From IMG/VR virus record IMGVR_UViG_3300011429_000010: a DNA stretch of 64,000 nt, one strand, 5' to 3'. The stretch is from an uncultured virus (IMG/VR IMGVR_UViG_3300011429_000010). Taxonomy: Duplodnaviria; Heunggongvirae; Uroviricota; Caudoviricetes. Below are positions 3,492-64,000 of the stretch, piece after piece. The notes under the pieces were generated by a model, which saw only the letters and a program-made list of their open reading frames with translations, had not been told where the DNA came from and searched no databases. Made by a program: the position numbers and the translations under genes. Numbering within the stretch: position 1 is the stretch's first letter; the number at the start of each line of letters is the position of its first letter.

Positions 3492-6400
3492 ATGGCTGAT
3501 GTCCGGTACCTGAAGTACACAATTACCCTCTCCGACAAGGATCTGGTGGATCTCCTCCAGTCACAGGTCCATGCCGGAGGCATGGTCGGACAGATCATTC
3601 TGTCGCCTACCACGGCCGGATTTATATACGGCGTCCCGCTTGAGGTACCTACAGCTCCCACGGGGCTGTCCACGGATGTCATCGTCTCCGATTGGTTTAC
3701 CGGAGACGGATCCAATTTCCCCCGCAACCAGGACACCTTCGATCGCTGCTCGGGTGGCTGGTTTGGCGTCTGTTTCCTGTTCGGGCACCGCGTCCGCTAC
3801 TGGTGGCGGGGCGAATTTGCGTACGTCCCCAAACTCGATATCGACCCGGTCACCGGGGTTGGCCCCCCGGTCACCCCCATCGGCACGCGGCGCTGGGCAG
3901 ACGGCTTTGAACTGCCCTTTGAGGGGGAAGGTGGCTCCGGTACGGCTGGGGCGCATCATGGCCGCACGGCGTCACGTCACGTCGCGGGCTACGGCCTTGC
4001 GCTGCGCAACACCAGCAATACCAAAGCCCACGCCCCGACTGAGAACGGCGCAGCGGCCACACGAAAACTCTGGGAACGGTTGTATTTCCGGATCCGCCGC
4101 TACCCGAAGACCGGCACCGGGCGGATCTGGCGCTGCCATGGAGCAACCTCCAACGCGGCAGGCATCGCGCTCGACATGAACCCGGCCGGGCAGATCGCCA
4201 TTAACAACATCGACAATATCGGGACGATCTTCCCGCACGCGTCCACGCCCGCGATCCCTCTCGATATCTGGCAGAAGCTGGATCTCGTGTACCAGTATGC
4301 CCCGGTCGGGGCCGCTGGGATGATTCCTCCGCCCCCGGCGTTCTGGATGTACATCAATGGTGTCCTGGTCTTTTCCAGCACCTACGCGGATTACGGGGCC
4401 GAAGGCGGCATCATTCAGGCCCAGAACATTTCGACGGGAGAAGTCGGCGGGGCCAACGCCGGTACGTCCTTCTCTATCGATTATGACGACTGGATTGGCA
4501 TTGAGATCGCGGGGTTTGACACGGCCGGGGCTATTCCTGCCACGGGCGGCATCGACTGGAATAACGGATCCCATGTCGCACTCATCACGCCCTCGGGCCT
4601 TGGCACCACCCCTGGCACCTGGGTGGGTGACTGGCGACTGGCGGCCCAGCGTCCGATGGGCAATTCCAGCCCGGTCCTGCTCACGTCCTCGACATCCGGG
4701 GACCGCCTCGTCTTGGCCACCGACGCCGACCGCGCCGTCGATCAGGCGCCTGGAGCCATGGGCTACGTCGCCATCAACGTCGGCATCTACGGACGCCGCG
4801 CGGCGCTCCCCGATGGGCAACTGGGCTACAAGCTCCCAGCCGGGGCCGAAGTCATGGCCACCGTTCTTCAGAATGCGGTCTTGGCCACATGGTCGCACGT
4901 CTTTTATGCTCCAGTGGGGCTTCTCAGTCCCGTCACGCCCCTGGCCGGATTAGAGATCCTGTTCACCAAAGGGCTGTCGGCCTCCGCCGCCGCCACGCAA
5001 GGGTTGTACGCCACCGCCGAACTCGTGGGGACGTTTGGTCGCGAGGATGTGGTCGCCCAGCCGGGCGATCCCCTTCCCGAACCGGCCGACCCGACCCCTG
5101 GCATCGATCTCGTCGCCCAGATCAAAGCCAATTGCATCGCCGCCGGGCTTTCTCTGGTGGGCGACTGTGGAGCCTTCGAAATTACCCGGCGTGTCGCGTG
5201 GGCGCTGCGGGATCGCGGGGCCGGGCTGCTGTTCAAAAACACCGGCGCACAGTGTCAGGAACGTAAAGTCGATTTCATTATGTACGAGGACGGTCAGGGC
5301 AATGACATCCTGATCAGCGCCGGAGTGCTCAACACCCCCGCGTGGCAGTCCTCGGTCGCCGTGGACCCGGCTTTATTCCGTGCGCCGACCGATCCTAATG
5401 ACCCGGTCACGGGCACCCTGCCGGTCATGGCGGAGACGATTGGGATCCACAACGCGCCGTACCCACGTACGCCATGGGCGCGCAAAGGCCCACCCCCGGT
5501 CTCCCCGGTCGTGGACCATGCCGGCATCTATGTCGGCACGGGCACTTTTATCGATTTATTTTTTCGGTGCCCGGTCCATTTCCTCTATATCCGGCCCCTG
5601 ACCGGCGGTTCTGGCCCCATCACGTGGTGGCCCTCCATGAACGCGCCCCATATGGTTGGGCAGGAACAGTACGCCCCGGATACCCTTCCTATTGTCGAGA
5701 TCGATCCCACGTTCGTCGGGGCCGTGGCCGAAGACCAGCAGGAACAGCGCACCGTGGTCCGCATCGCCGGGACCAACATCAACGTCAACGCCGTGGGCGT
5801 CACCTACCAGTACATGGCCTTCTCCGATCCGGGGATGCGATTCTGTGACGCCTCCGCGCTCTGGGAAGCGGCTGGGATCCTCGATGCCCAAAGCACCTTG
5901 GATGATGATCGGTTCCTGCCCATCGGGGTCTTTCTCTGTCAGGAGCAAAATTCCGCCACCACCACGACCCGGCTCTTTTACAAGGGGCCGGGATCCGCCG
6001 CGACGGCCGTGACCCGTCTTGATGGCTCCGAAGTCGTCACCGCCTTGTCGATCGACACCGGGACGTTGACCGCCAAGACGAATTTGTTGTCCGCGTTGGC
6101 GACGGGCCAGATCCCCTATATCGCCTTCCGCCGGGACGACGGCTCCGGAGACGTGGGCGTCTCCCGCGCCGTCCAGATGATAACCTACACCGGGGACGGG
6201 AACGCGTCCCGTACGCTGGCCCTGACCCCGGCCTCGGGCCGCCGTCCCATGTGGGCCGTGGTCGTCCCGCACAACAACGTCGCGGCTATCCAGCGCGACC
6301 CGTCTCACACCGGTACCACGTCCACCCAATGGCCCAATACGCCCAATGCCGCGACGGGCATTACCGGGGGTGGCATCGACTCTATTTTCGTGGGCTCAGC

Positions 6401-25877: not shown

Positions 25878-26095
25878 TTTTCAATCTCCCGCTCTAGTAC
25901 AATTTCAGGGCCCCACAGGGATCGGTGAACGTGTTGATCCAGCCATGTATTAAAATCGTGACCATATAATGTCACTCCAGCCTCATCACGATTTATGTAC
26001 CACCCTTGTGAGGGATAGTACTTGGCCAGCTGAAATGTAGCCAGACCTTCTGGGTCACACACGGTGCAACGTAGGTACATCCGATTATTCGCCAT
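25874..26095 (-). CDS. Small hypothetical protein
   Basis: MANNRMYLRCTVC...; TAATG coupling. Confidence 0.5.
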   Translation of the reverse strand: MANNRMYLRCTVCDPEGLATFQLAKYYPSQGWYINRDEAGVTLYGHDFNTWLDQHVHRSLWGPEIVLEREIEK

Positions 26096-27195
26096 TAGGC
26101 CACCCTCCGCTCCAGCGCGTCCCACTCATCCTGATCCGCCTCATCCCGCGGCATCGTCGGCGGATCGATAATCGGCGTGATATTCGGCACGATCGGTGGC
26201 GTGGGGATTTTGTGCATGTCGCGCTTGTCCCACGTGAGCCCGCCTTTGGCTTCCACCCCAATCCGTAAGGTAGGGCCGATCCCCCATTCCGGGGGCGCTG
26301 GCAGCTCTACATTCTCGTCCTGCATGACCCTGGCGACGATGGCCAGTACGCGATCGTACACGCGATTGGGGACGTGCAGAAACAGCGCATCATGAATAGG
26401 ATGCAGCAACGGCGTGCGCCCGAAATACGCATCGCCAATATAATCAGGGCTGTCTGGGTGGAATAACCTAAGCTCCGCCTTTTTCAACAGGTACGAACAG
26501 GTGGACTGTGGATAAAACGCAATCGCACGCTTCGAGTCACCGCCCCAGACGATCTTGAACCACCGGCCGTGCATGTTGACGATGCGGCCGGCGCGTTTGG
26601 GATCCTTGCTCCACTTCCGCGCGGTCACCTCATCCGTAGGCTGGTAGCTCAGGACGTCCCAGAACCAGTGCCGATACCCCCCAGGATGGTCCCAACAGCT
26701 CGGGGTGCCCGGCGGCAGCGTCAGGCCGCCTAGGTACCCTACCTCGCGGGCGCGCTTCCTGACGGCCAGCTGCCACGCCGGCAGGGCCGGGGCGACCTGG
26801 AACAGGAAGGATTGTAACTGTTCAGCTTCGGCGACGGAGCTGAAGTACTCAGGGAATTGCTGGACCATGCCGTAGGGGGTCAGCCCGAAATCGGTCCCAT
26901 GGTCGACCCGTTTGATAATGTCGTACTCAACCGGGTAGCCTTTTTTGATTTCTTTCAAATAGGCGGATAATTGATCATCGGGCCAGTTCAAATTACCAGG
27001 AGATTCGATTCGGTGATCCTGCGCGAGCTTGACTGATGTTACTTGCGCGTGAATGCCCAACCGACAAATGCGAATATATTGCTGTGCGCCAGCTGAATCG
27101 CCTAAATGGCGCCAGAACGCGTACCCTGTCAACACGGCTTCGATGCCGCTGAAATCGACTTCCAACAGGCGACAGGACACGTCAGCGGTAATCAT
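26095..27195 (-). CDS. Family A DNA polymerase, C-terminal catalytic subunit
   Basis: Motif A LLEVDFSGIE, motif B KRVDHGTDFG, AFYPQST, motif C PIHDAL. Confidence 0.9.
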   Translation of the reverse strand: MITADVSCRLLEVDFSGIEAVLTGYAFWRHLGDSAGAQQYIRICRLGIHAQVTSVKLAQDHRIESPGNLNWPDDQLSAYLKEIKKGYPVEYDIIKRVDHGTDFGLTPYGMVQQFPEYFSSVAEAEQLQSFLFQVAPALPAWQLAVRKRAREVGYLGGLTLPPGTPSCWDHPGGYRHWFWDVLSYQPTDEVTARKWSKDPKRAGRIVNMHGRWFKIVWGGDSKRAIAFYPQSTCSYLLKKAELRLFHPDSPDYIGDAYFGRTPLLHPIHDALFLHVPNRVYDRVLAIVARVMQDENVELPAPPEWGIGPTLRIGVEAKGGLTWDKRDMHKIPTPPIVPNITPIIDPPTMPRDEADQDEWDALERRVA

Positions 27196-27340
27196 GGCCG
27201 TCCCACACGTGTTCGCCTAAGTACCACACCGCCAGCTCAAACAGGCCCCAACCGCCGGATGGAATCCGCCACGTGAATCCAAGACCGTAATAGCCTCCGT
27301 CTGTGAAGCGTAGCGTATATTCCTGGCCGTTGATGATCAT
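27182..27340 (-). CDS. Small hypothetical protein between the polymerase halves
   Basis: 52 aa, ATGA coupling. Confidence 0.4.
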   Translation of the reverse strand: MIINGQEYTLRFTDGGYYGLGFTWRIPSGGWGLFELAVWYLGEHVWDGHDYR

Positions 27341-27609
27341 GCCAACGGCACCAATCCCACGTGTTCCTGCCCCTCGACCCACCGCAGTGCCTGGGCGATC
27401 GTCTCCTGCGCGACCACCGGCACCGACGTCGCCAGCGCCCCCCGCTGCGTCCCGATCCAGTAAACAGTCCGCGCAAACAAAATGGCGGTGATCGTCAGAG
27501 CCTCCGCGTTGTTCACGCCCAGCTCGGTAATATGGGCTTCCAACGCCTTGACGGTTTCATTAACGATCTCGGCACCATATTCCAGTGACTGTCGATCCGG
27601 TCTCGTCAT
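27337..27609 (-). CDS. Hypothetical protein between the polymerase halves
   Basis: 90 aa, RBS GGAG, ATGA coupling. Confidence 0.55.
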   Translation of the reverse strand: MTRPDRQSLEYGAEIVNETVKALEAHITELGVNNAEALTITAILFARTVYWIGTQRGALATSVPVVAQETIAQALRWVEGQEHVGLVPLA

Positions 27610-28097
27610 TGTACTCCCCAGCGCGCCGCCCACGCGGCCACGTCCTCGTTACTCGTGTCCGGCGGGATCCCGCCCCGCGCAGTGTTTCCACGTCGTATAG
27701 CATCGTAGCGTTTCTTACAATTTTTACACCGACCGCCACGTTGAAACAATCCATGTGGGTGATAATAGAATTCGGTGAAATGTTTTGGCTTACTACAAGC
27801 GCAACATAATTTGTCGGTATTTGGATTGCCCCCTGCCGCCTTAACGCGCATCCGTACATGCAGCAAACAATGGTACGCCATGTCTTGGCAAATGACCAAT
27901 GGCGCATCATCATCCCGCGAACCATCCGCATGGTGAACCAACGCGCCGAGTGGCAATGGCTTGCCTAGCGCACGTTCAGCACGTACACGATGTACCAAGA
28001 TACACATTTTGCTGCCGTTGCCTAGCCCACGTTTTCCGTACACATGATCAGCATGACCACGTGGACGGCCAGTAGGACGCCCTGTTACACGCCCCAT
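27606..28097 (-). CDS. Free-standing HNH homing endonuclease with C-terminal Zn finger
   Basis: VHRVRAERALGKPL...VHHADG...LVIC...HCLLH; CCAC...EFY...CKNC; AT-richer than flanks; start uncertain. Confidence 0.8.
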   Translation of the reverse strand: MGRVTGRPTGRPRGHADHVYGKRGLGNGSKMCILVHRVRAERALGKPLPLGALVHHADGSRDDDAPLVICQDMAYHCLLHVRMRVKAAGGNPNTDKLCCACSKPKHFTEFYYHPHGLFQRGGRCKNCKKRYDAIRRGNTARGGIPPDTSNEDVAAWAARWGVQ

Positions 28098-30355
28098 CGT
28101 CGCACCCAATCCTGATACATTTCTTCTGTGGTATTTGGTGGTAGGCCATCCCGAGATTTTACGCAACGCCGGAATCCACTCGCCAGCGACTGCGGCCCGG
28201 TGTCTTCCCCCTTGTCAGCCACGACGTTCTGCAGATTCGGCCCGCGCGAGCTATCCCTGAGTGTCGAGGGGATCGGCACGATCTCAGGATGAATACGATC
28301 ATTCTCATCCATCCGCGTCAGCACGCCCAACGCGTACGTCGAATCGACCTTTTGGACCGCGCGAAAGTCCAACGTGGCGCTGTACAATGGATCCTTGGTC
28401 TCCGCGGCGAGGCGTTTCAGCGTTTGGCTGTCGGTGGTCGGCTTTTTGGTCTTACGGTGTGTTCCGGGGGTATGCCCAGCACGTTCAATATAACCGAGGA
28501 GCTGTTGCCACGAGTCTGGGTTGTACGGGATTTGCCAAAACCAGCGGTCAGCAGGCTGATATTGTGTAAATAAATGTTGACGAGATTGATCGTCAGACCC
28601 ACCCACGCCCGGTACTCGATCTCCAGCTGCAGCGGTGCGCGCGTTTTGAGCTTTTTTACAGTCATGCGATGCGCCGACGCCCACTTTGCCACATGCTCGA
28701 CAAATTCGCACGTCTGTATGTACAACGCGGTGGACAAGGGAAACGCCCTCGGCAGTGTAGGCTTGTTTGGCTTCACTTTTCCGCTTCCCTTTGGCCTTGC
28801 TGGTGGAGACGATGGATTCCGGGGGCTTGGCCGGAATTTCTTGGAGATCGGGGACGTTTTCATATTCGATCGTTTCTGGGCCGGTGCCATGATCCTCGAC
28901 CACGCGTTCCTTACGCTGCGACTTGGGCACACAGTTATGACTACCGATGACCGGGCTGGTCCCGCAAGTATCACAGCGATACGCTGTAGGCTTTTTAGCG
29001 TAGCCGGCTTTAGGTTTAAGCGTACCCTCGGCGCCAATGGTTTTGATCCGCTCCAGGATTTCCGTTTGCTTGGTTTGGAGATCGGCATGGAATTGTTCCA
29101 GGGCAGGGCGATCCACGGGGACGCCCAGCGCGCGGGAAGGTTGTAGGACGTAATAATCACGTTCGTGCCAGTCGTTGACGAAGACGTTCCACATGCCGGC
29201 GGCGTGGAGGGCCCGAAACACCCACATGCACGTGCGCCAGTTTTGGACGCCGTCCGCCGCCGCGTACTCGCCCTCGCGTTCCTTGAGCTTGCCCCAGTGC
29301 TTCCAGGCGCCGAAATCACTGGCGAGCGGGGCGACGAATCCTAATCCTCGCGGGATATCACTTTGTAAATATTTCCACGCCCACATGCCATCGTACGCGA
29401 CGATGCCATCTAATGTATGCCCGGCGGCGTGGAGCTTGTCCCAGTCCGCGTATTTGTTCCACAGCCAGACAAACCCATTCAGCCGCGCCAGCCCCGCGAA
29501 CAGCTTTTCGGTAATGGTAATGTAATCCCCGATATACGGCACCGTCCAGCCGGTCGTGCCGTCATTGGCGCCGTTAATCCGGGTTAGTGGGGACTTGGCC
29601 CCGGCAACGAGATCGATTTCTGATTCGTCACCGCCCATCTTTTCAAGATACTCCGTGTCAATAGAGGTATGTACTTGTTCGGGATTGGCTGCCACCTTTG
29701 CCAGATGGTCGTCCACCCAGCGGGCATACCAGTCCGTTCCAGGATCCACAACAAGATTAACAGGCGATCGTACGAAGCCTTTTTCGCTAATCGTCTTGGC
29801 CGTGCGGTAATCATTGGTGACAATTTCAAGGAGTGACATGGCACCCCGTTGTAAATGTGAGGGATGGAATGACGGGACAACCCAATAGCGGTCGTCAGGC
29901 GAGCGGGTGACTGTCCCATGGAAGTCTTTAACGGCAATGCCTTCTACTCCATGGAGATTGAGAATGGACTTCAGGGCGGTGGCGCCCAATGGGACCACCA
30001 CGGAGTTTTCAGGAACCTGCGCGAGCGTCTGATTCAAATACTGGCGGCAATGAGTCAGCGCGGGGTAGTACCAGCTCGCCTGTTCGTCAAACCAGTTATT
30101 GGGCGGCCGACAGCGGCAGCAATTGTCGGCGCGCGTCATTTCCCTGGTAATGCCGGCGCGCATACACACACGCGTGTGGACGCCTCCAGCCGCGCCAGTC
30201 AACGGTCTGCCGCTGAACGTCTCATCCTCGCCCAGCGCCTCGGCGACGAAGGTGATGCGCGAGCCTAATGGGCCGTCCACGGGCGCGTAGCCGGTGCCCT
30301 GGCGCTCCAGGACGCAGTCTGCGCAGCCGGCGGGCTTTTGAAATCGCGGTAACAA
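28085..30355 (-). CDS. Family A DNA polymerase N-terminal subunit: family-4 UDG-like domain + 3'-5' exonuclease + thumb
   Basis: CADC, AEALG, CRPPNN, HPSH (UDG-4); IDTE, WNKYAD, YAAAD (Exo I-III); RIHP...STLRDSSRGPNLQNV. Confidence 0.9.
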   Translation of the reverse strand: MLPRFQKPAGCADCVLERQGTGYAPVDGPLGSRITFVAEALGEDETFSGRPLTGAAGGVHTRVCMRAGITREMTRADNCCRCRPPNNWFDEQASWYYPALTHCRQYLNQTLAQVPENSVVVPLGATALKSILNLHGVEGIAVKDFHGTVTRSPDDRYWVVPSFHPSHLQRGAMSLLEIVTNDYRTAKTISEKGFVRSPVNLVVDPGTDWYARWVDDHLAKVAANPEQVHTSIDTEYLEKMGGDESEIDLVAGAKSPLTRINGANDGTTGWTVPYIGDYITITEKLFAGLARLNGFVWLWNKYADWDKLHAAGHTLDGIVAYDGMWAWKYLQSDIPRGLGFVAPLASDFGAWKHWGKLKEREGEYAAADGVQNWRTCMWVFRALHAAGMWNVFVNDWHERDYYVLQPSRALGVPVDRPALEQFHADLQTKQTEILERIKTIGAEGTLKPKAGYAKKPTAYRCDTCGTSPVIGSHNCVPKSQRKERVVEDHGTGPETIEYENVPDLQEIPAKPPESIVSTSKAKGKRKSEAKQAYTAEGVSLVHRVVHTDVRICRACGKVGVGASHDCKKAQNARTAAAGDRVPGVGGSDDQSRQHLFTQYQPADRWFWQIPYNPDSWQQLLGYIERAGHTPGTHRKTKKPTTDSQTLKRLAAETKDPLYSATLDFRAVQKVDSTYALGVLTRMDENDRIHPEIVPIPSTLRDSSRGPNLQNVVADKGEDTGPQSLASGFRRCVKSRDGLPPNTTEEMYQDWVRRWGV

Positions 30356-37879: not shown

Positions 37880-38509
37880 TCAGCGGTCGGAGTCACCGGG
37901 GTCGTCCTTTCCACCTTCGGGGAATCGCTTGACGTAGCGAGGGCCGGCAGGGGGCTCCGCGGTTGAAATCGCTGGTCCGGCAGCTCCGGCGGTCTCGCCC
38001 CCTCCCAGCCGTCCCACAAGGCCCGGCGGTGGTTCCATGCCAGCGCCTTGTCCGTCAATCGGCTGGCCAGCAGCCGCGGCGCCGGCTGTGGGATCGGCAG
38101 GGGCACCGTCAACGGCACCGCCCGCCGCCTGCGCGGTCGCATTCCGGGGATCTGACGTTTCACCCTGGCCATTGTTGCTCAGTATCGCCTCTTGTTCCGG
38201 GGTCATCATCTGGCCACACCAGATCAGGGGCATTTCCGATTGGTTGACGCGACAGGTGATCGGGAAGGCGGCGGACAAGGTGAGGCGTACCATGGGCACC
38301 GGCGCGCGCGGATCCATCACCGGGGCAATGTCCATGACCGTGAAAATCGTGTCAAAGGGGGTGCGGTACGCGACCAGCGATCCCTTGATAATCTTGTTGC
38401 CCAAGCGGTCCAAGGCGGTGAATTCCTCGGCAGCGACCAGCCGTGCGAAATCCTGCATCGAAATTTTGCCGGCCGGGCGAATGAACGGTTTGTGTTTGTG
38501 TTCGCTCAT
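37880..38509 (-). CDS. Hypothetical protein
   Basis: 209 aa; DRLGNKIIKGSLV globular N-part, disordered tail. Confidence 0.55.
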   Translation of the reverse strand: MSEHKHKPFIRPAGKISMQDFARLVAAEEFTALDRLGNKIIKGSLVAYRTPFDTIFTVMDIAPVMDPRAPVPMVRLTLSAAFPITCRVNQSEMPLIWCGQMMTPEQEAILSNNGQGETSDPRNATAQAAGGAVDGAPADPTAGAAAAGQPIDGQGAGMEPPPGLVGRLGGGETAGAAGPAISTAEPPAGPRYVKRFPEGGKDDPGDSDR

Positions 38510-38606
38510 GACCTTGCTTCCTGGAAAAAGAGGGATGGCCTTTCGGTGTCATAGCTGACAGGCGGCTAACCCCCGCCCCATCCCCCGTCGAGTCGCGTCG
38601 AATCGA

Positions 38607-39041
38607 TTACGCCGTCGCGTGGTCGTCGCCCATCGGCCCGCCCGGATCCGGCAGCGGGGGCGCCGTCACGTCCGCCGCAGCCTGGGTGCCCGCGTCACCC
38701 GCGGGGGTCTCCGCGCCGTTGCCCTTGCTGGCGTTGCTCGGACGTCCACGCCGACGCTTGGGGGCCTCGCCGGTGCCCTCCGTGGCGCCTTCGGTGGCCG
38801 CGCCGCCAGCTGCCGCGACACGATTGGCTCGTTCCCTGGAACGATCGCGCTTACGCGGCGTGCTTCCACCAGCCGGCACCCCGGTGGGAATCGTGGAGCC
38901 GGACGCCTTGGCCCGCCCGATCACGATGGCCTGCGCGACGTCGATATCGTGCTTGGCCTCCGCAAGCGGTGCGGACATGAAATGGTTGACGATCAGCTGG
39001 AGCGAGGAGATTGTTGCGACGGTCTTGGGTCGGCCTGCCAT
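38607..39041 (-). CDS. AT-hook-containing DNA-binding protein candidate
   Basis: RBS AGGAG; helical N-terminus then PKRRRGRPS. Confidence 0.6.
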   Translation of the reverse strand: MAGRPKTVATISSLQLIVNHFMSAPLAEAKHDIDVAQAIVIGRAKASGSTIPTGVPAGGSTPRKRDRSRERANRVAAAGGAATEGATEGTGEAPKRRRGRPSNASKGNGAETPAGDAGTQAAADVTAPPLPDPGGPMGDDHATA

Positions 39042-39098
39042 TGAAGTACTCCTATTTAATGCCGACCAGAAAATGGTCTGACCGGCGGTTCGTTATTC

Positions 39099-39127
39099 AC
39101 TGTACATGTACGCCAACCGCCGTGCAA
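39099..39127 (-). promoter_or_regulatory. Sigma70-type promoter
   Basis: TTGCAC-N17-TACAGT with an AT-rich upstream tract. Confidence 0.6.
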
Positions 39128-39146
39128 CTAATTAATTTGAAAATCA

Positions 39147-39253
39147 TGACCCCTGTACCGTGGCTTGCTGTCCACGGCCCGCGGAATGCGACAGGAGAAT
39201 TGGCGGCTCGACAGTTTTCCGCACATCGGGTCCAATCCTCATGACAGGGGTCA
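39147..39253 (-). ncRNA. Candidate structured RNA with pseudoknot
   Basis: 10-bp closing stem, two inner stems and a 9-bp crossing helix; intergenic. Confidence 0.55.
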
Positions 39254-39269
39254 ATCTGTTTGTTGCTGG

Positions 39270-40094
39270 TTACTTGGTCGGCGTCCCCAGCGGCGGCGCG
39301 AACCGCTCGACGCTCGGGAACCCACGCAACACCGCACCACACTCACACTCGATCGAGTCCATGAAGTCGCCGGTTTCCGGATCCTTGAAGTCGTTGGTAT
39401 ACCAACGGCCCTTTTTGCCCTTGCCGTCTGCGCGCTTCTGACTGTCATCGCCGCAACCCTTGACGCCGGTGGGGTCCGCGATCGTCTTCTCACTGCTCGG
39501 GGTGCCCACAGGCGATCCCGCCGGTGGCGGCGTGGCGACGATGATGTACCGCACCTTGTCCGGCCGACAGTGCGCCGACAGCCCGTGTTCGATACGAATC
39601 GTACGGCCCGCGTACTTGTTGATCGCCGCCTTCAGCCCGTCCGGAGTCGCCGGCCGCGAATGGTCGCCGATCCCGATATCGAGCAGGTACGCCAGATCAC
39701 TCACCCAAGGCGTCTTTTCGTCATCCGCCTTACCACGCGGCCGGGGATTGCTCGAAAAGCTCGCCGTCATGGTCTGGCCGGCGTGCGGGCCGCTGGCGAT
39801 CACCAGCGGGTTGTTTTTGTCAAACTTCAACTGGTTGCGGCGCACGGTCTGGCCGTGGGTCTTGCTGCGCGGGTTGCCGTCCTTGATATCGACGGTGCCC
39901 CACAGCTGGGCGATGTTGGCGGGCAAGGTGAATTCGTCGGTGCCGGGCATCAGCGTTTCGCGCGCGCCGAAGCCTTGTGATGGCAGATCGCCTTCCGGCC
40001 AGACCTCGCCGCCTTCGTTCACGATGTTCGGATTGTTCACGTCAGTCATTGCGTTGTGCTCCTGGGCTGCTGGTTGTTGGGTGTCATCTATCAT
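39270..40094 (-). CDS. Single-stranded DNA-binding protein candidate
   Basis: Follows the Sak4-like gene; OB-like LMPGTDEFTL...LKFD pattern; Cys-bearing C-terminus. Confidence 0.5.
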   Translation of the reverse strand: MIDDTQQPAAQEHNAMTDVNNPNIVNEGGEVWPEGDLPSQGFGARETLMPGTDEFTLPANIAQLWGTVDIKDGNPRSKTHGQTVRRNQLKFDKNNPLVIASGPHAGQTMTASFSSNPRPRGKADDEKTPWVSDLAYLLDIGIGDHSRPATPDGLKAAINKYAGRTIRIEHGLSAHCRPDKVRYIIVATPPPAGSPVGTPSSEKTIADPTGVKGCGDDSQKRADGKGKKGRWYTNDFKDPETGDFMDSIECECGAVLRGFPSVERFAPPLGTPTK

Positions 40095-62019: not shown

Positions 62020-62442
62020 ATGACCATTCGTGTCGAGCACCACCACTATTTCCATGTCGATTCTGACGATAGCGTGCGCCAGAAACTCGATTCCATCATC
62101 ACGCTGTTAGCTGGTCTGAAACACCAGGAGGAAGCCGAAATGACCCGACTCGATGATCTCAAAGTCAAGCTCCAGACCCTCAGCGACGACGTGGCGGCCG
62201 AAACCAACATCGTGGAAGCCGCCAAGATTGCGATCGACGGGCTGATCGCGTCCAACGAGGAACTTCGTCAGCAGCTCGAAAACCAGGGCGTGCCCCAGGA
62301 AGTCCTCGATCTCGTGGACGCGACCATCGCCGCCCAGAAGGCCCAGCGCGAGCGGCTGGCCGCGGCCATCCCGGCTGGCACGCCGGCTGTTCCGGCGCCG
62401 CCCGCGGAAGGCACCGGGTTGTCCACCGACGCCAAGTCGTAA
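62020..62442 (+). CDS. Coiled-coil protein
   Basis: 140 aa heptads; second RBS AGGAGG before internal ATG 62140. Confidence 0.55.
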   Translation: MTIRVEHHHYFHVDSDDSVRQKLDSIITLLAGLKHQEEAEMTRLDDLKVKLQTLSDDVAAETNIVEAAKIAIDGLIASNEELRQQLENQGVPQEVLDLVDATIAAQKAQRERLAAAIPAGTPAVPAPPAEGTGLSTDAKS

Positions 62443-62469
62443 GCGTTTCTCAGTTGGGAGGACTCGCGC

Positions 62470-64000
62470 ATGTCGCAATATCAAATTCCCCGGTTCGGTT
62501 CCACTAACGACCAGATCGCGGGATACATGCGCGAGGCCACCCAGCAGGGGGAGGCATGGCTGGCGACCCAGCGGCCGTCCAGCGAGTGGATGAGCATTAT
62601 CGAGCGCCTGTCCGCGTCCATTCCCCAAGCCGAGTTATCCGGGCAGTCCAACGCCACCTACAACAAAACCGAACGAGTGGCGCGTGAATTAGTCGCGTCC
62701 CTAGGATCCTTCGCGCACGACGGTGAATTCAAACCCAGTAGCGACAAAAAACTCTACAACCAAGCCGGCGCGCTGACCAAGCTCGATCGCCACTGGAATA
62801 ACCAGGAAGACGTGTATTTGACGCAACGCGCGGGCCTGCAGTACGGCATCGCGCTCGGGACCGGTTATCTGGGCTGCGAGTGGGACAAACATTACCACGG
62901 CATGTACAAAGGCGATATCCGCCTGACGGCCTACGCGCCAGACCGCGTGACCTTTGTCCAATTGCCTTCTGACAACGATATCCAGCGCGCGTACATCGTG
63001 CTGATCAAACACGAACTCCCGATCACCTTCGCCAAGCGCGTCTACGCTCAGACCAATCCCGCCTTCGCGGCGGCGCTGCAGCCTGACCGCTCCGCCCCCG
63101 GCTGGATTTCCAAGGGTCTGCGCAAGGTGCAGGAATTTCTCTCACCCGCGTTGCGCGTCCGCGGCACGCGCCCCGGCGACGTCGCCGAAGCGTCATTCCC
63201 TACGTGTGACATTTTCCACGCGTACATCATGGACGATGCCGTCAACGATATCGGTATTAATCGTCAGATGGGCGCCATGGGGACGAATTGGTCGTACCAA
63301 GTCCCGTCACTGGGCGATCCGATCAACATGGGGATCATGAACCCGGCGACCGGCCAGAATTTCACCCGTCCCGCCGAACCATCTGACTGCGCATTGTTTC
63401 CCTTGCGGCGCCTCGTCATCTTCGCGCGCTCGACCGACATTATCGCCTACGATGGCAGCTCACCGTGGTGGCACGGCATGGTCCCGCTCGCGCGCTTCCG
63501 GTTCAACGACTGGCCCTGGGAAGCCCTCGGCCGCTCCTGCGTAGGCATGATCGGCTCCTTAGACGATTCCATGAATAACATCTTCCGCGGGATGGAAGAT
63601 TCGATCGCGGTGCGGCTGGATCCCCCCGTCCTGTACAACGACCAGATGGTCAGCCAATCATTCGCGGAGGCGTTCAATCCACGTAAGGCGGGCGTGCGCG
63701 CGGCGGCGAACCTGGACGGCGGCAAGGTGCTGGAATTCCCGGTGCCCCCTGGTCAGTACGACGTCGGCTCGTGGATCCCTGAACATCTGCGGTATCTGGA
63801 TGACCGCGCGGAATATTTAACGGGTGTGCGCGATCTCACCGCCATCGCCAAGGCCAAGCAATTACCCTCTGGCGATTCCATCGAAAAGTTATTGGAAATG
63901 GCCGGCCCGCTGACGCAGGACATGGTCCGCGCCATTGTCGGCCCGCTTCGCCAGCTCGGTGAAATGCGCAAAGCCTATTATTTCCAATTCTACACCTACC
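62470..64000 (+). CDS. Portal protein (truncated by window end)
   Basis: Read manually, absent from the ORF track: RBS GGGAGG, ATG 62470, frame open in the segments I translated up to the window end; GTGYLGCEWD, WHGMVPLARF...WPWEALGRS; follows TerL. Confidence 0.8.
   Translation, partial: MSQYQIPRFGSTNDQIAGYMREATQQGEAWLATQRPSSEWMSIIERLSASIPQAELSGQSNATYNKTERVARELVASLGSFAHDGEFKPSSDKKLYNQAGALTKLDRHWNNQEDVYLTQRAGLQYGIALGTGYLGCEWDKHYHGMYKGDIRLTAYAPDRVTFVQLPSDNDIQRAYIVLIKHELPITFAKRVYAQTNPAFAAALQPDRSAPGWISKGLRKVQEFLSPALRVRGTRPGDVAEASFPTCDIFHAYIMDDAVNDIGINRQMGAMGTNWSYQVPSLGDPINMGIMNPATGQNFTRPAEPSDCALFPLRRLVIFARSTDIIAYDGSSPWWHGMVPLARFRFNDWPWEALGRSCVGMIGSLDDSMNNIFRGMEDSIAVRLDPPVLYNDQMVSQSFAEAFNPRKAGVRAAANLDGGKVLEFPVPPGQYDVGSWIPEHLRYLDDRAEYLTGVRDLTAIAKAKQLPSGDSIEKLLEMAGPLTQDMVRAIVGPLRQLGEMRKAYYFQFYTY

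Follow-up and report, generated by a model that had tools for sequence, protein, structure and literature searches.

A candidate structured RNA behind an SSB-like gene, in a slot of changing content among related phages

What occupies the gap that follows an SSB-like gene on the minus strand of this uncultured phage, and what might it do there? The window, by which we mean the whole 64,000-nt stretch of DNA analysed, covers the greater part of a phage genome (about 68 kb, 61% GC) and carries pieces of DNA polymerase A, a Pif1/Dda-like helicase, an HNH gene, a methyltransferase, a terminase-like gene and an adaptor. The gap is non-coding, spans 229 nt on the minus strand between a 259-aa gene (39270–40049) and a 144-aa gene (38607–39041), and holds a 107-nt element (39147–39253, minus strand) that a preliminary description had presented as a candidate novel pseudoknotted RNA.

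The gene before the gap (274 aa if started at 40094) encodes a protein with an OB fold and conserved cysteines, which has 70 homologues and matched nothing in Pfam or PHROG; beyond contigs that carry the identical protein, its closest homologues are 62–67% identical. Its structure model (pLDDT 91.6) gave PrgE as top structural match (Z 6.3, rmsd 4.0, 123 aligned); rows for Teb1, RPA and SSB came next, with Z of 3.5–4.4, and a viral library returned weak rows, several of them DUF669. The modelled fold, together with the position of the gene after two others that we read as exonuclease-like and ATPase-like (labels of our own, without family matches), points to an SSB. We regard this identity as plausible rather than proven, because the Z values are middling and Foldseek found no match in the PDB at E ≤ 0.001.

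The gene after the gap encodes 144 aa, of which the N-terminal part is conserved, and carries basic motifs of the RGRP type that we take to be AT-hooks; it has no Pfam match, and its homologues come after the spacer in related loci. A weak sigma-70-like promoter candidate for this gene (39099–39127, minus strand; 7 of 12 consensus matches) follows an AT-rich run; a loose scan of the window gave 15 sites of this kind, this one among them, and a stricter scan missed it. Two hairpins (39042–39130, minus strand; z −1.37) lie between this candidate and the gene's ribosome-binding site, in a stretch that has the word GGCGGTTGG in common with several related spacers, and after the gene lies a terminator-like four-way junction followed by a U-run (38515–38606, minus strand; z −1.72).

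The element starts 16 nt after the SSB stop codon, beyond an A/C-rich linker (39254–39269) that is unpaired in the folds. Every helix named in the preliminary description was found where it had been placed on the minus strand. Three of them dominate the nested ensemble, with pair probabilities of 0.96–1.0: a GC-rich closing stem of 10 bp, P1 (39244–39253 with 39147–39156; 0.96); helix A, 9 bp including one G-U pair (39232–39240 with 39195–39203; 1.0); and hairpin C (39157–39178; 0.99), whose 7 bp (39178–39172/39163–39157) enclose an 8-nt loop. Hairpin C directly adjoins P1, on which it may stack coaxially. The fourth, helix B (39217–39223 with 39180–39186), comprises the GCGGAA/UUCCGC pairing and a terminal U-G pair, 7 bp in all, and crosses A. 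In addition, the GACAG of hairpin C (39172–39168) can pair with CUGUC at 39214–39210 or 39194–39190, as had been proposed for two internal copies of that word; there are in fact three copies, the third overlapping the closing stem.

Against shuffled sequences the whole minus-strand fold gave z scores of −3.17 and −3.33, the latter with none of 200 shuffles as stable, and the plus strand gave −2.34 and −2.68. The G-U pair of helix A had been said to favour the minus strand, and the energies agree (−10.6 kcal/mol, versus −6.6 kcal/mol on the other strand); helix B carries no such strand signal and hairpin C little. The idea of a structured minus-strand RNA after the SSB-like gene is thus supported by the folding, by the strand bias of helix A, by the OB-fold model and by the RNAs found in the same slot of relatives (below). 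P1 is followed by a U-rich tail (39139–39146; 5 U in 8 nt), so that a long-range stem precedes a weak terminator-like run, although the terminator scan called no intrinsic terminator at the element. The SSB frame itself stays open for 41 codons past its stop (39144–39269, minus strand) and ends at a stop right after P1; the possible read-through that this implies is probably chance.

The pseudoknot fared less well than the helices. The preliminary description had taken the 9-bp helix to be the crossing one; the roles are reversed, helix A being the nested arm and GCGGAA/UUCCGC the candidate for a knot. Moreover, a helix as stable as B arose in 917 of 5,000 and 815 of 5,000 shuffles of its two segments, so that the crossing helix is matched by chance in 16–18% of shuffles, and its energy is marginal. 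Freeing the strands of B costs 6.0 kcal/mol relative to the best nested fold, and the stacks of B return 13.3; dropping all pairs that compete with B costs about 12 and removes a loop penalty of 6.3. From these balances, formation of the knot depends on a loop penalty of about 7–8 kcal/mol, which is the size of commonly used values. The label ‘pseudoknotted’ is therefore unsupported, a helix B pseudoknot being neither shown nor excluded. As to the GACAG of hairpin C, in a post hoc count it paired with either CUGUC copy in 568 of 5,000 shuffles and with both in 18 of 5,000.

How unusual such a fold is in this GC-rich genome depends on what is counted. Of 3,196 grid windows of the same genome, 12 have a lower z than the element, a comparison in which the element's window was placed by hand and the others on a 40-nt grid; a z near −3.3 is attained by about 0.4% of the genome's windows. 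Three stretches of the window, 1841–2070, 5481–5590 and 62441–62550, fold as well as the element or better (z −3.3 to −4.6). P1 alone is at chance level (the window has 10 such 10-bp pairs, and 20 shuffles averaged 10.9). The combination of a 9-bp helix, a crossing 6-bp helix and a separate 6-bp hairpin occurred in 0 of 3,000 shuffles of the interior, in a test defined after the sequence had been seen. Four copies of CTGTC/GACAG in 107 nt are the window's maximum for that word, and 389 of 1,278 windows hold some 5-mer four times; the repeats were considered as iterons and rejected, their number not being unusual. On balance the stems of the element are probably real.

Comparison with catalogued RNAs placed the element in no known family. 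Rfam 15 gave no match at gathering level in the window, and at a relaxed threshold only an lncRNA fragment appeared (13.7 bits, E 0.96), as expected by chance. ARAGORN found no tRNA or tmRNA genes in the window; when relaxed to noise level it gave nothing matching 39147–39253 among the matches listed, and the element has no T-loop, anticodon arm or 3′ CCA. Descriptor and motif checks used the core features of HDV-like and other ribozymes. A nested P1-P2-P3 HDV-like descriptor with a 3-bp P3 matched the minus strand once, off the element's helices, and the plus strand six times, each on a G-U-rich P3 without the loop and junction cores, while matches to the L3 consensus, P1.1 and the catalytic junction C fell outside any L3 position. 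The element shares with HDV-like ribozymes the order of first stem, second stem, 13-nt linker and partners, but lacks their three-pair inner stem, loop consensus, short second knot and catalytic junction. Neither hammerhead, twister, pistol, hatchet nor glmS has its core in a fitting order in the element, the closest likeness being a hammerhead-like heptamer with one mismatch and without the surrounding stems. The earlier suggestion of a ribozyme drew no support from these checks, since no known small-ribozyme core fits.

By context the closest known system is the STAXI motif (Rfam RF01728), which the available part of its description (PMC2864571) presents as two or three successive copies of a pseudoknot, in many cases with UUCG loops, near SSB or other DNA-handling genes. 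The element likewise lies close behind an OB-fold gene; in contrast to the tandem STAXI repeats it is single, enclosed by a closing stem, free of a UUCG loop and without an Rfam score. No direct repeat of its unit was found in the window and no STAXI in two related phage records. T4 offers a comparable variable setting: according to the accessible portions of PMC9697503 and PMC2330249, RNAC and RNAD (species I/II) are small RNAs of unknown function made within a longer transcript; related phages differ in what they carry in this region, where a homing endonuclease may also lie, much as the slot of one of our related loci holds an HNH gene. The element has no sequence or Rfam similarity to these RNAs, and the window has no tRNA genes. 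Fremin et al. (2023) described candidate structured RNAs from phage intergenic regions, including tRNA-like folds, terminators and elements adjacent to SSB (gp32), as far as the available part of PMC10690425 goes. Like the element, these are uncatalogued folds between phage genes, but in the same available part their gp32-linked examples lie upstream of the gene and are defined by covariation, whereas ours lies downstream and has no homologue. Short motifs gave 0 matches in the part of those supplements that was searched, and the remainder may hold the element; a literature search with the same partial coverage of the PMC10690425 supplements turned up no description of it. It is best filed as an uncatalogued fold akin to the orphan structured RNAs of phage intergenic regions.

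Three further candidates were considered. The terminal repeats recall the a1/a2 inverted repeats of a retron msr-msd, and no reverse transcriptase was found among the 23 proteins scanned, which are a subset of the ORFs; the neighbours are not reverse transcriptases. The region from linker to hairpin C resembles a type I-C CRISPR repeat, a candidate rejected because the 3′ handle is absent. A miniature inverted-repeat element or REP doublet was also rejected, there being one copy in the window and genome matches with the same ends being unrelated inside.

None of the homologue searches found another copy of the element. Pattern scans of viral contigs returned 6 loci for the closing stem, 36 for the CUGUC spacing, 22 for helix A and 21 for hairpin C, no homologue among them, and the four loci from a closing-stem scan of genomes were long palindromes or had unrelated interiors. 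Neither blastn against cultured phages and plasmids nor nhmmer over the fetched loci found one, and the element is absent from two related near-complete phage records. A single-sequence covariance model was run over 43, 22 and 25 sources, a set that left out the 36 CUGUC-spacing loci and L002–L005, again without a homologue; its best non-self matches were either pattern-selected or lay inside a terminase-like gene at E 0.21. A topology descriptor over 534,834 bases, both strands, gave loose matches, none of them in the sense slot of a relative. These searches reach close or exact-motif relatives, and their negatives are weak because exact-pattern scans miss diverged homologues. Two loci with the closing stem, L001 and L006, were rejected as homologues, having that stem alone in common with the element and carrying it before a terminase-like gene; what they hold there is an unrelated structured element of 99 nt with the same 9-bp ends (near 1335–1433 of L006).

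A clearer picture came from the position itself. Related loci were fetched through an SSB alignment; of 38, three without a stop codon, one that was truncated and three duplicates were dropped, leaving 31, with SSBs 39–62% identical to the query. The order of SSB, spacer and short basic gene is kept in many of them. When the first 120 nt after the SSB stop were folded for these loci and the window, z fell below −2 in 14 of 32 sequences in the sense direction, in 11 of 32 antisense and in 3 of 32 coding controls; the window's own slice scored −1.75 because it cuts P1. This statistic is not a clean one, since so many antisense sequences are low and no fewer than two of the 14 low-scoring sense sequences, L011 and L030, are coding inserts. 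Of 12 locus pairs, six have SSB DNA that is 82–87% identical, and in five of these the slot is only 51–59% identical, against a null of 52.7 ± 3.1 (83% in the sixth). Hence the slot after the SSB gene turns over faster than the gene and is swapped among related phages. Its occupants include small ORFs, an HNH endonuclease, tRNA-like folds and several RNAs without an Rfam score. The spacer of the window resembles none of these (its best local score is 23, and the null reaches 25). The HNH endonuclease gene is free-standing and directly follows the SSB stop (L011:3743–4168; E 2.8e-15); its product could drive the exchange of slot content.

One group of occupants, which we call family ‘a’, lies just after the SSB stop in L014, L016, L018, L019, L021, L022 and L023, as well as in L037 and, judged by eye, in L033. 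It consists of a 7-bp stem with a bulged A, flanking motifs, a tandem G-A-like junction and a variable inner hairpin, with a long hairpin in its 3′ part that ends shortly before the ribosome-binding site of the next gene. In the seven aligned loci all 49 cells of the stem are paired and 2 of its 7 pairs have changed on both sides; only 2 of 500 shuffles reached as high a covariation score, which relatedness can inflate. The family has no Rfam match. Its model (R2) finds L037 (E 1.7e-4, 22.3 bits), while a pattern scan of viral contigs gave three loci, all unrelated. Membership of the element in this family was rejected, the best score in 38400–39400 being 5.1 bits versus 72–108 for the training members.

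Other occupants come in pairs whose compensatory changes were seen by eye. L029:2195–2262 and L042:456–528 have in common an apparent double pseudoknot, in which the second hairpin's loop pairs with a 5′ segment and the first hairpin's loop with the segment after it; this motif is a ribozyme-like candidate in itself. The same loci share an H-type pseudoknot with a G-U-closed second stem (L029:2312–2375, L042:526–592), and L025:940–1065 and L032:572–715 share a multibranch motif whose junction sequences are conserved and whose long hairpin varies. On a quick SSB tree the members of each of these pairs, L029/L042 and L025/L032, stand on separate branches, so that like RNA types recur behind distant SSBs. 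Cloverleaves or T-arm folds reminiscent of tRNA occur at L010:2534–2615, L026:3896–3984, L035:800–900 and near 700–760 of L042, those of L010, L035 and L042 being recognized by eye; ARAGORN called none of the four, and that of L026 compares weakly with tRNA-Sec (23.2 bits, E 3.9). In our view the swappable slot, together with the other covarying RNAs that it holds, is a more solid and more interesting result than the single element.

The reading that we place first, while granting it slightly under an even chance, is that the element, as a swappable RNA module, both terminates the SSB message and protects it, and that it may remain as a small RNA. The 107-nt module would be transcribed as the tail of an exonuclease-ATPase-SSB message. 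P1 would close it, hairpin C would stack on P1 to give a rod of about 17 bp, and arm A would form the other limb, whether or not the crossing helix forms. The module could then act as a 3′-end cap that blocks 3′-to-5′ decay, and could mark a leaky stop or a processing site before the next promoter; the SSB message would thereby be stabilized, and a small stable RNA might be left of the module. Among these phages it would be one of several unrelated folds able to fill the slot. This comes close to the ‘nuclease-blocking element’ of the preliminary description, at which we arrive by inference. We favour a cap because of the fold z, the probabilities of P1, A and C and the 0 of 3,000 shuffles, because the gap is non-coding and P1 is followed directly by a U-rich run and a weak promoter candidate, and because the slot folds in 14 of 32 sequences, turns over, includes the covarying family ‘a’ and has RNA types that recur behind distant SSBs. 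The cap is disfavoured by the missing homologue, the weak U-run and the negative terminator scan, by 12 windows of the genome that fold as well or better, and by a multibranch fold of 107 nt, which exceeds what end protection needs.

Some of the same evidence would suit an RNA acting in trans. The element might be cut from the SSB message, made in step with SSB, and titrate a host protein as a decoy or mimic, the suggested targets being a tRNA-cleaving nuclease, a reverse-transcriptase defence system or an RNA-binding regulator. P1 and the adjoining hairpin C resemble the rod of acceptor and T-arm, other slot occupants are tRNA-like, and an arms race would be expected to turn the slot over fast. 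There is precedent in a phage SSB that triggers the DRT4 defence system (as stated in the available part of 10.64898/2026.10.21.760695), and an analogy in T4 RNAC and RNAD, whose function is unknown according to the accessible portions of PMC9697503 and PMC2330249. Set against this, the element lacks the T-loop, anticodon arm and 3′ CCA of a tRNA, and it has no long complement elsewhere in the window, where the longest shared word is 13 nt; we consider a decoy unlikely, if worth keeping in mind. We also think it unlikely that the element is a non-coding remnant with an incidental fold, its stems having formed by chance in GC-rich DNA. The near-chance levels of P1, the crossing helix and the CUGUC repeats taken singly, the lack of a homologue and the 0.4% of windows with a similar z would all be consistent with this, but three strong helices tile the element end to end, their combination was absent from the shuffles, and the slot holds covarying RNAs in relatives.

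Two remaining explanations seem to us very improbable, and about equally so. In one, a self-cleaving ribozyme of a new class would split the operon transcript by means of a double pseudoknot formed by helix B and the loop C–CUGUC pairing. In size, and in the nested double knot that it may form, the element would suit a small ribozyme, helices A and B follow each other with HDV-like spacing around a middle linker of 13 nt, and the L029/L042 slot has its apparent double pseudoknot; yet no minus-strand HDV-like match uses helix A as its first stem, the other small-ribozyme cores lack a fitting order, Rfam is negative and the pseudoknot is marginal. In the other, the signal is in DNA, as a hairpin or cruciform (a priming site, origin element, recombination boundary or tiny inverted-repeat element) that would be read when SSB-coated single strands are exposed. 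Both strands fold equally as DNA (−24.5 and −24.7), and such a role accords with a perfect 10-bp terminal inverted repeat next to an AT-rich run among replication and recombination genes; a DNA role was also considered for STAXI, in the available part of PMC2864571. Against it, the element is present in a single copy in the window without a clear target-site duplication, the four same-end genome matches are long palindromes or unrelated inside, its absence from the two related near-complete phage records is unlike an essential origin, and its G-U pairs favour RNA.

A broader proposal joins several of these threads. The locus might be an RNA armament slot, in which interchangeable, uncatalogued small RNAs are co-expressed with SSB, each a decoy against a host defence that SSB can trigger, and in which the element is a new fold among such anti-defence RNAs or a new class of ribozyme that sets one free; we think this improbable. 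The set may comprise the bulged-stem, double-pseudoknot, tRNA-like and enclosed-pseudoknot folds, and swapping may proceed by recombination between the conserved flanking genes or by the HNH endonuclease. Small phage RNAs whose function is unknown have long been a gap in the field, and if the slot reading is true, one locus offers a natural panel of unrelated RNA folds with a comparable job, whose function could be tested by swapping the RNAs in one and the same reporter. The slot would then also draw attention to no fewer than four RNA motifs without an Rfam 15 score. If the element is only an end cap the addition is modest, and a single element without homologues carries limited weight by itself.

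Elsewhere on the minus strand of the window (26095–30355), DNA polymerase A is split over two ORFs, the first fused to a uracil-DNA-glycosylase-like domain, and the gap of about 900 nt between them holds a small ORF.
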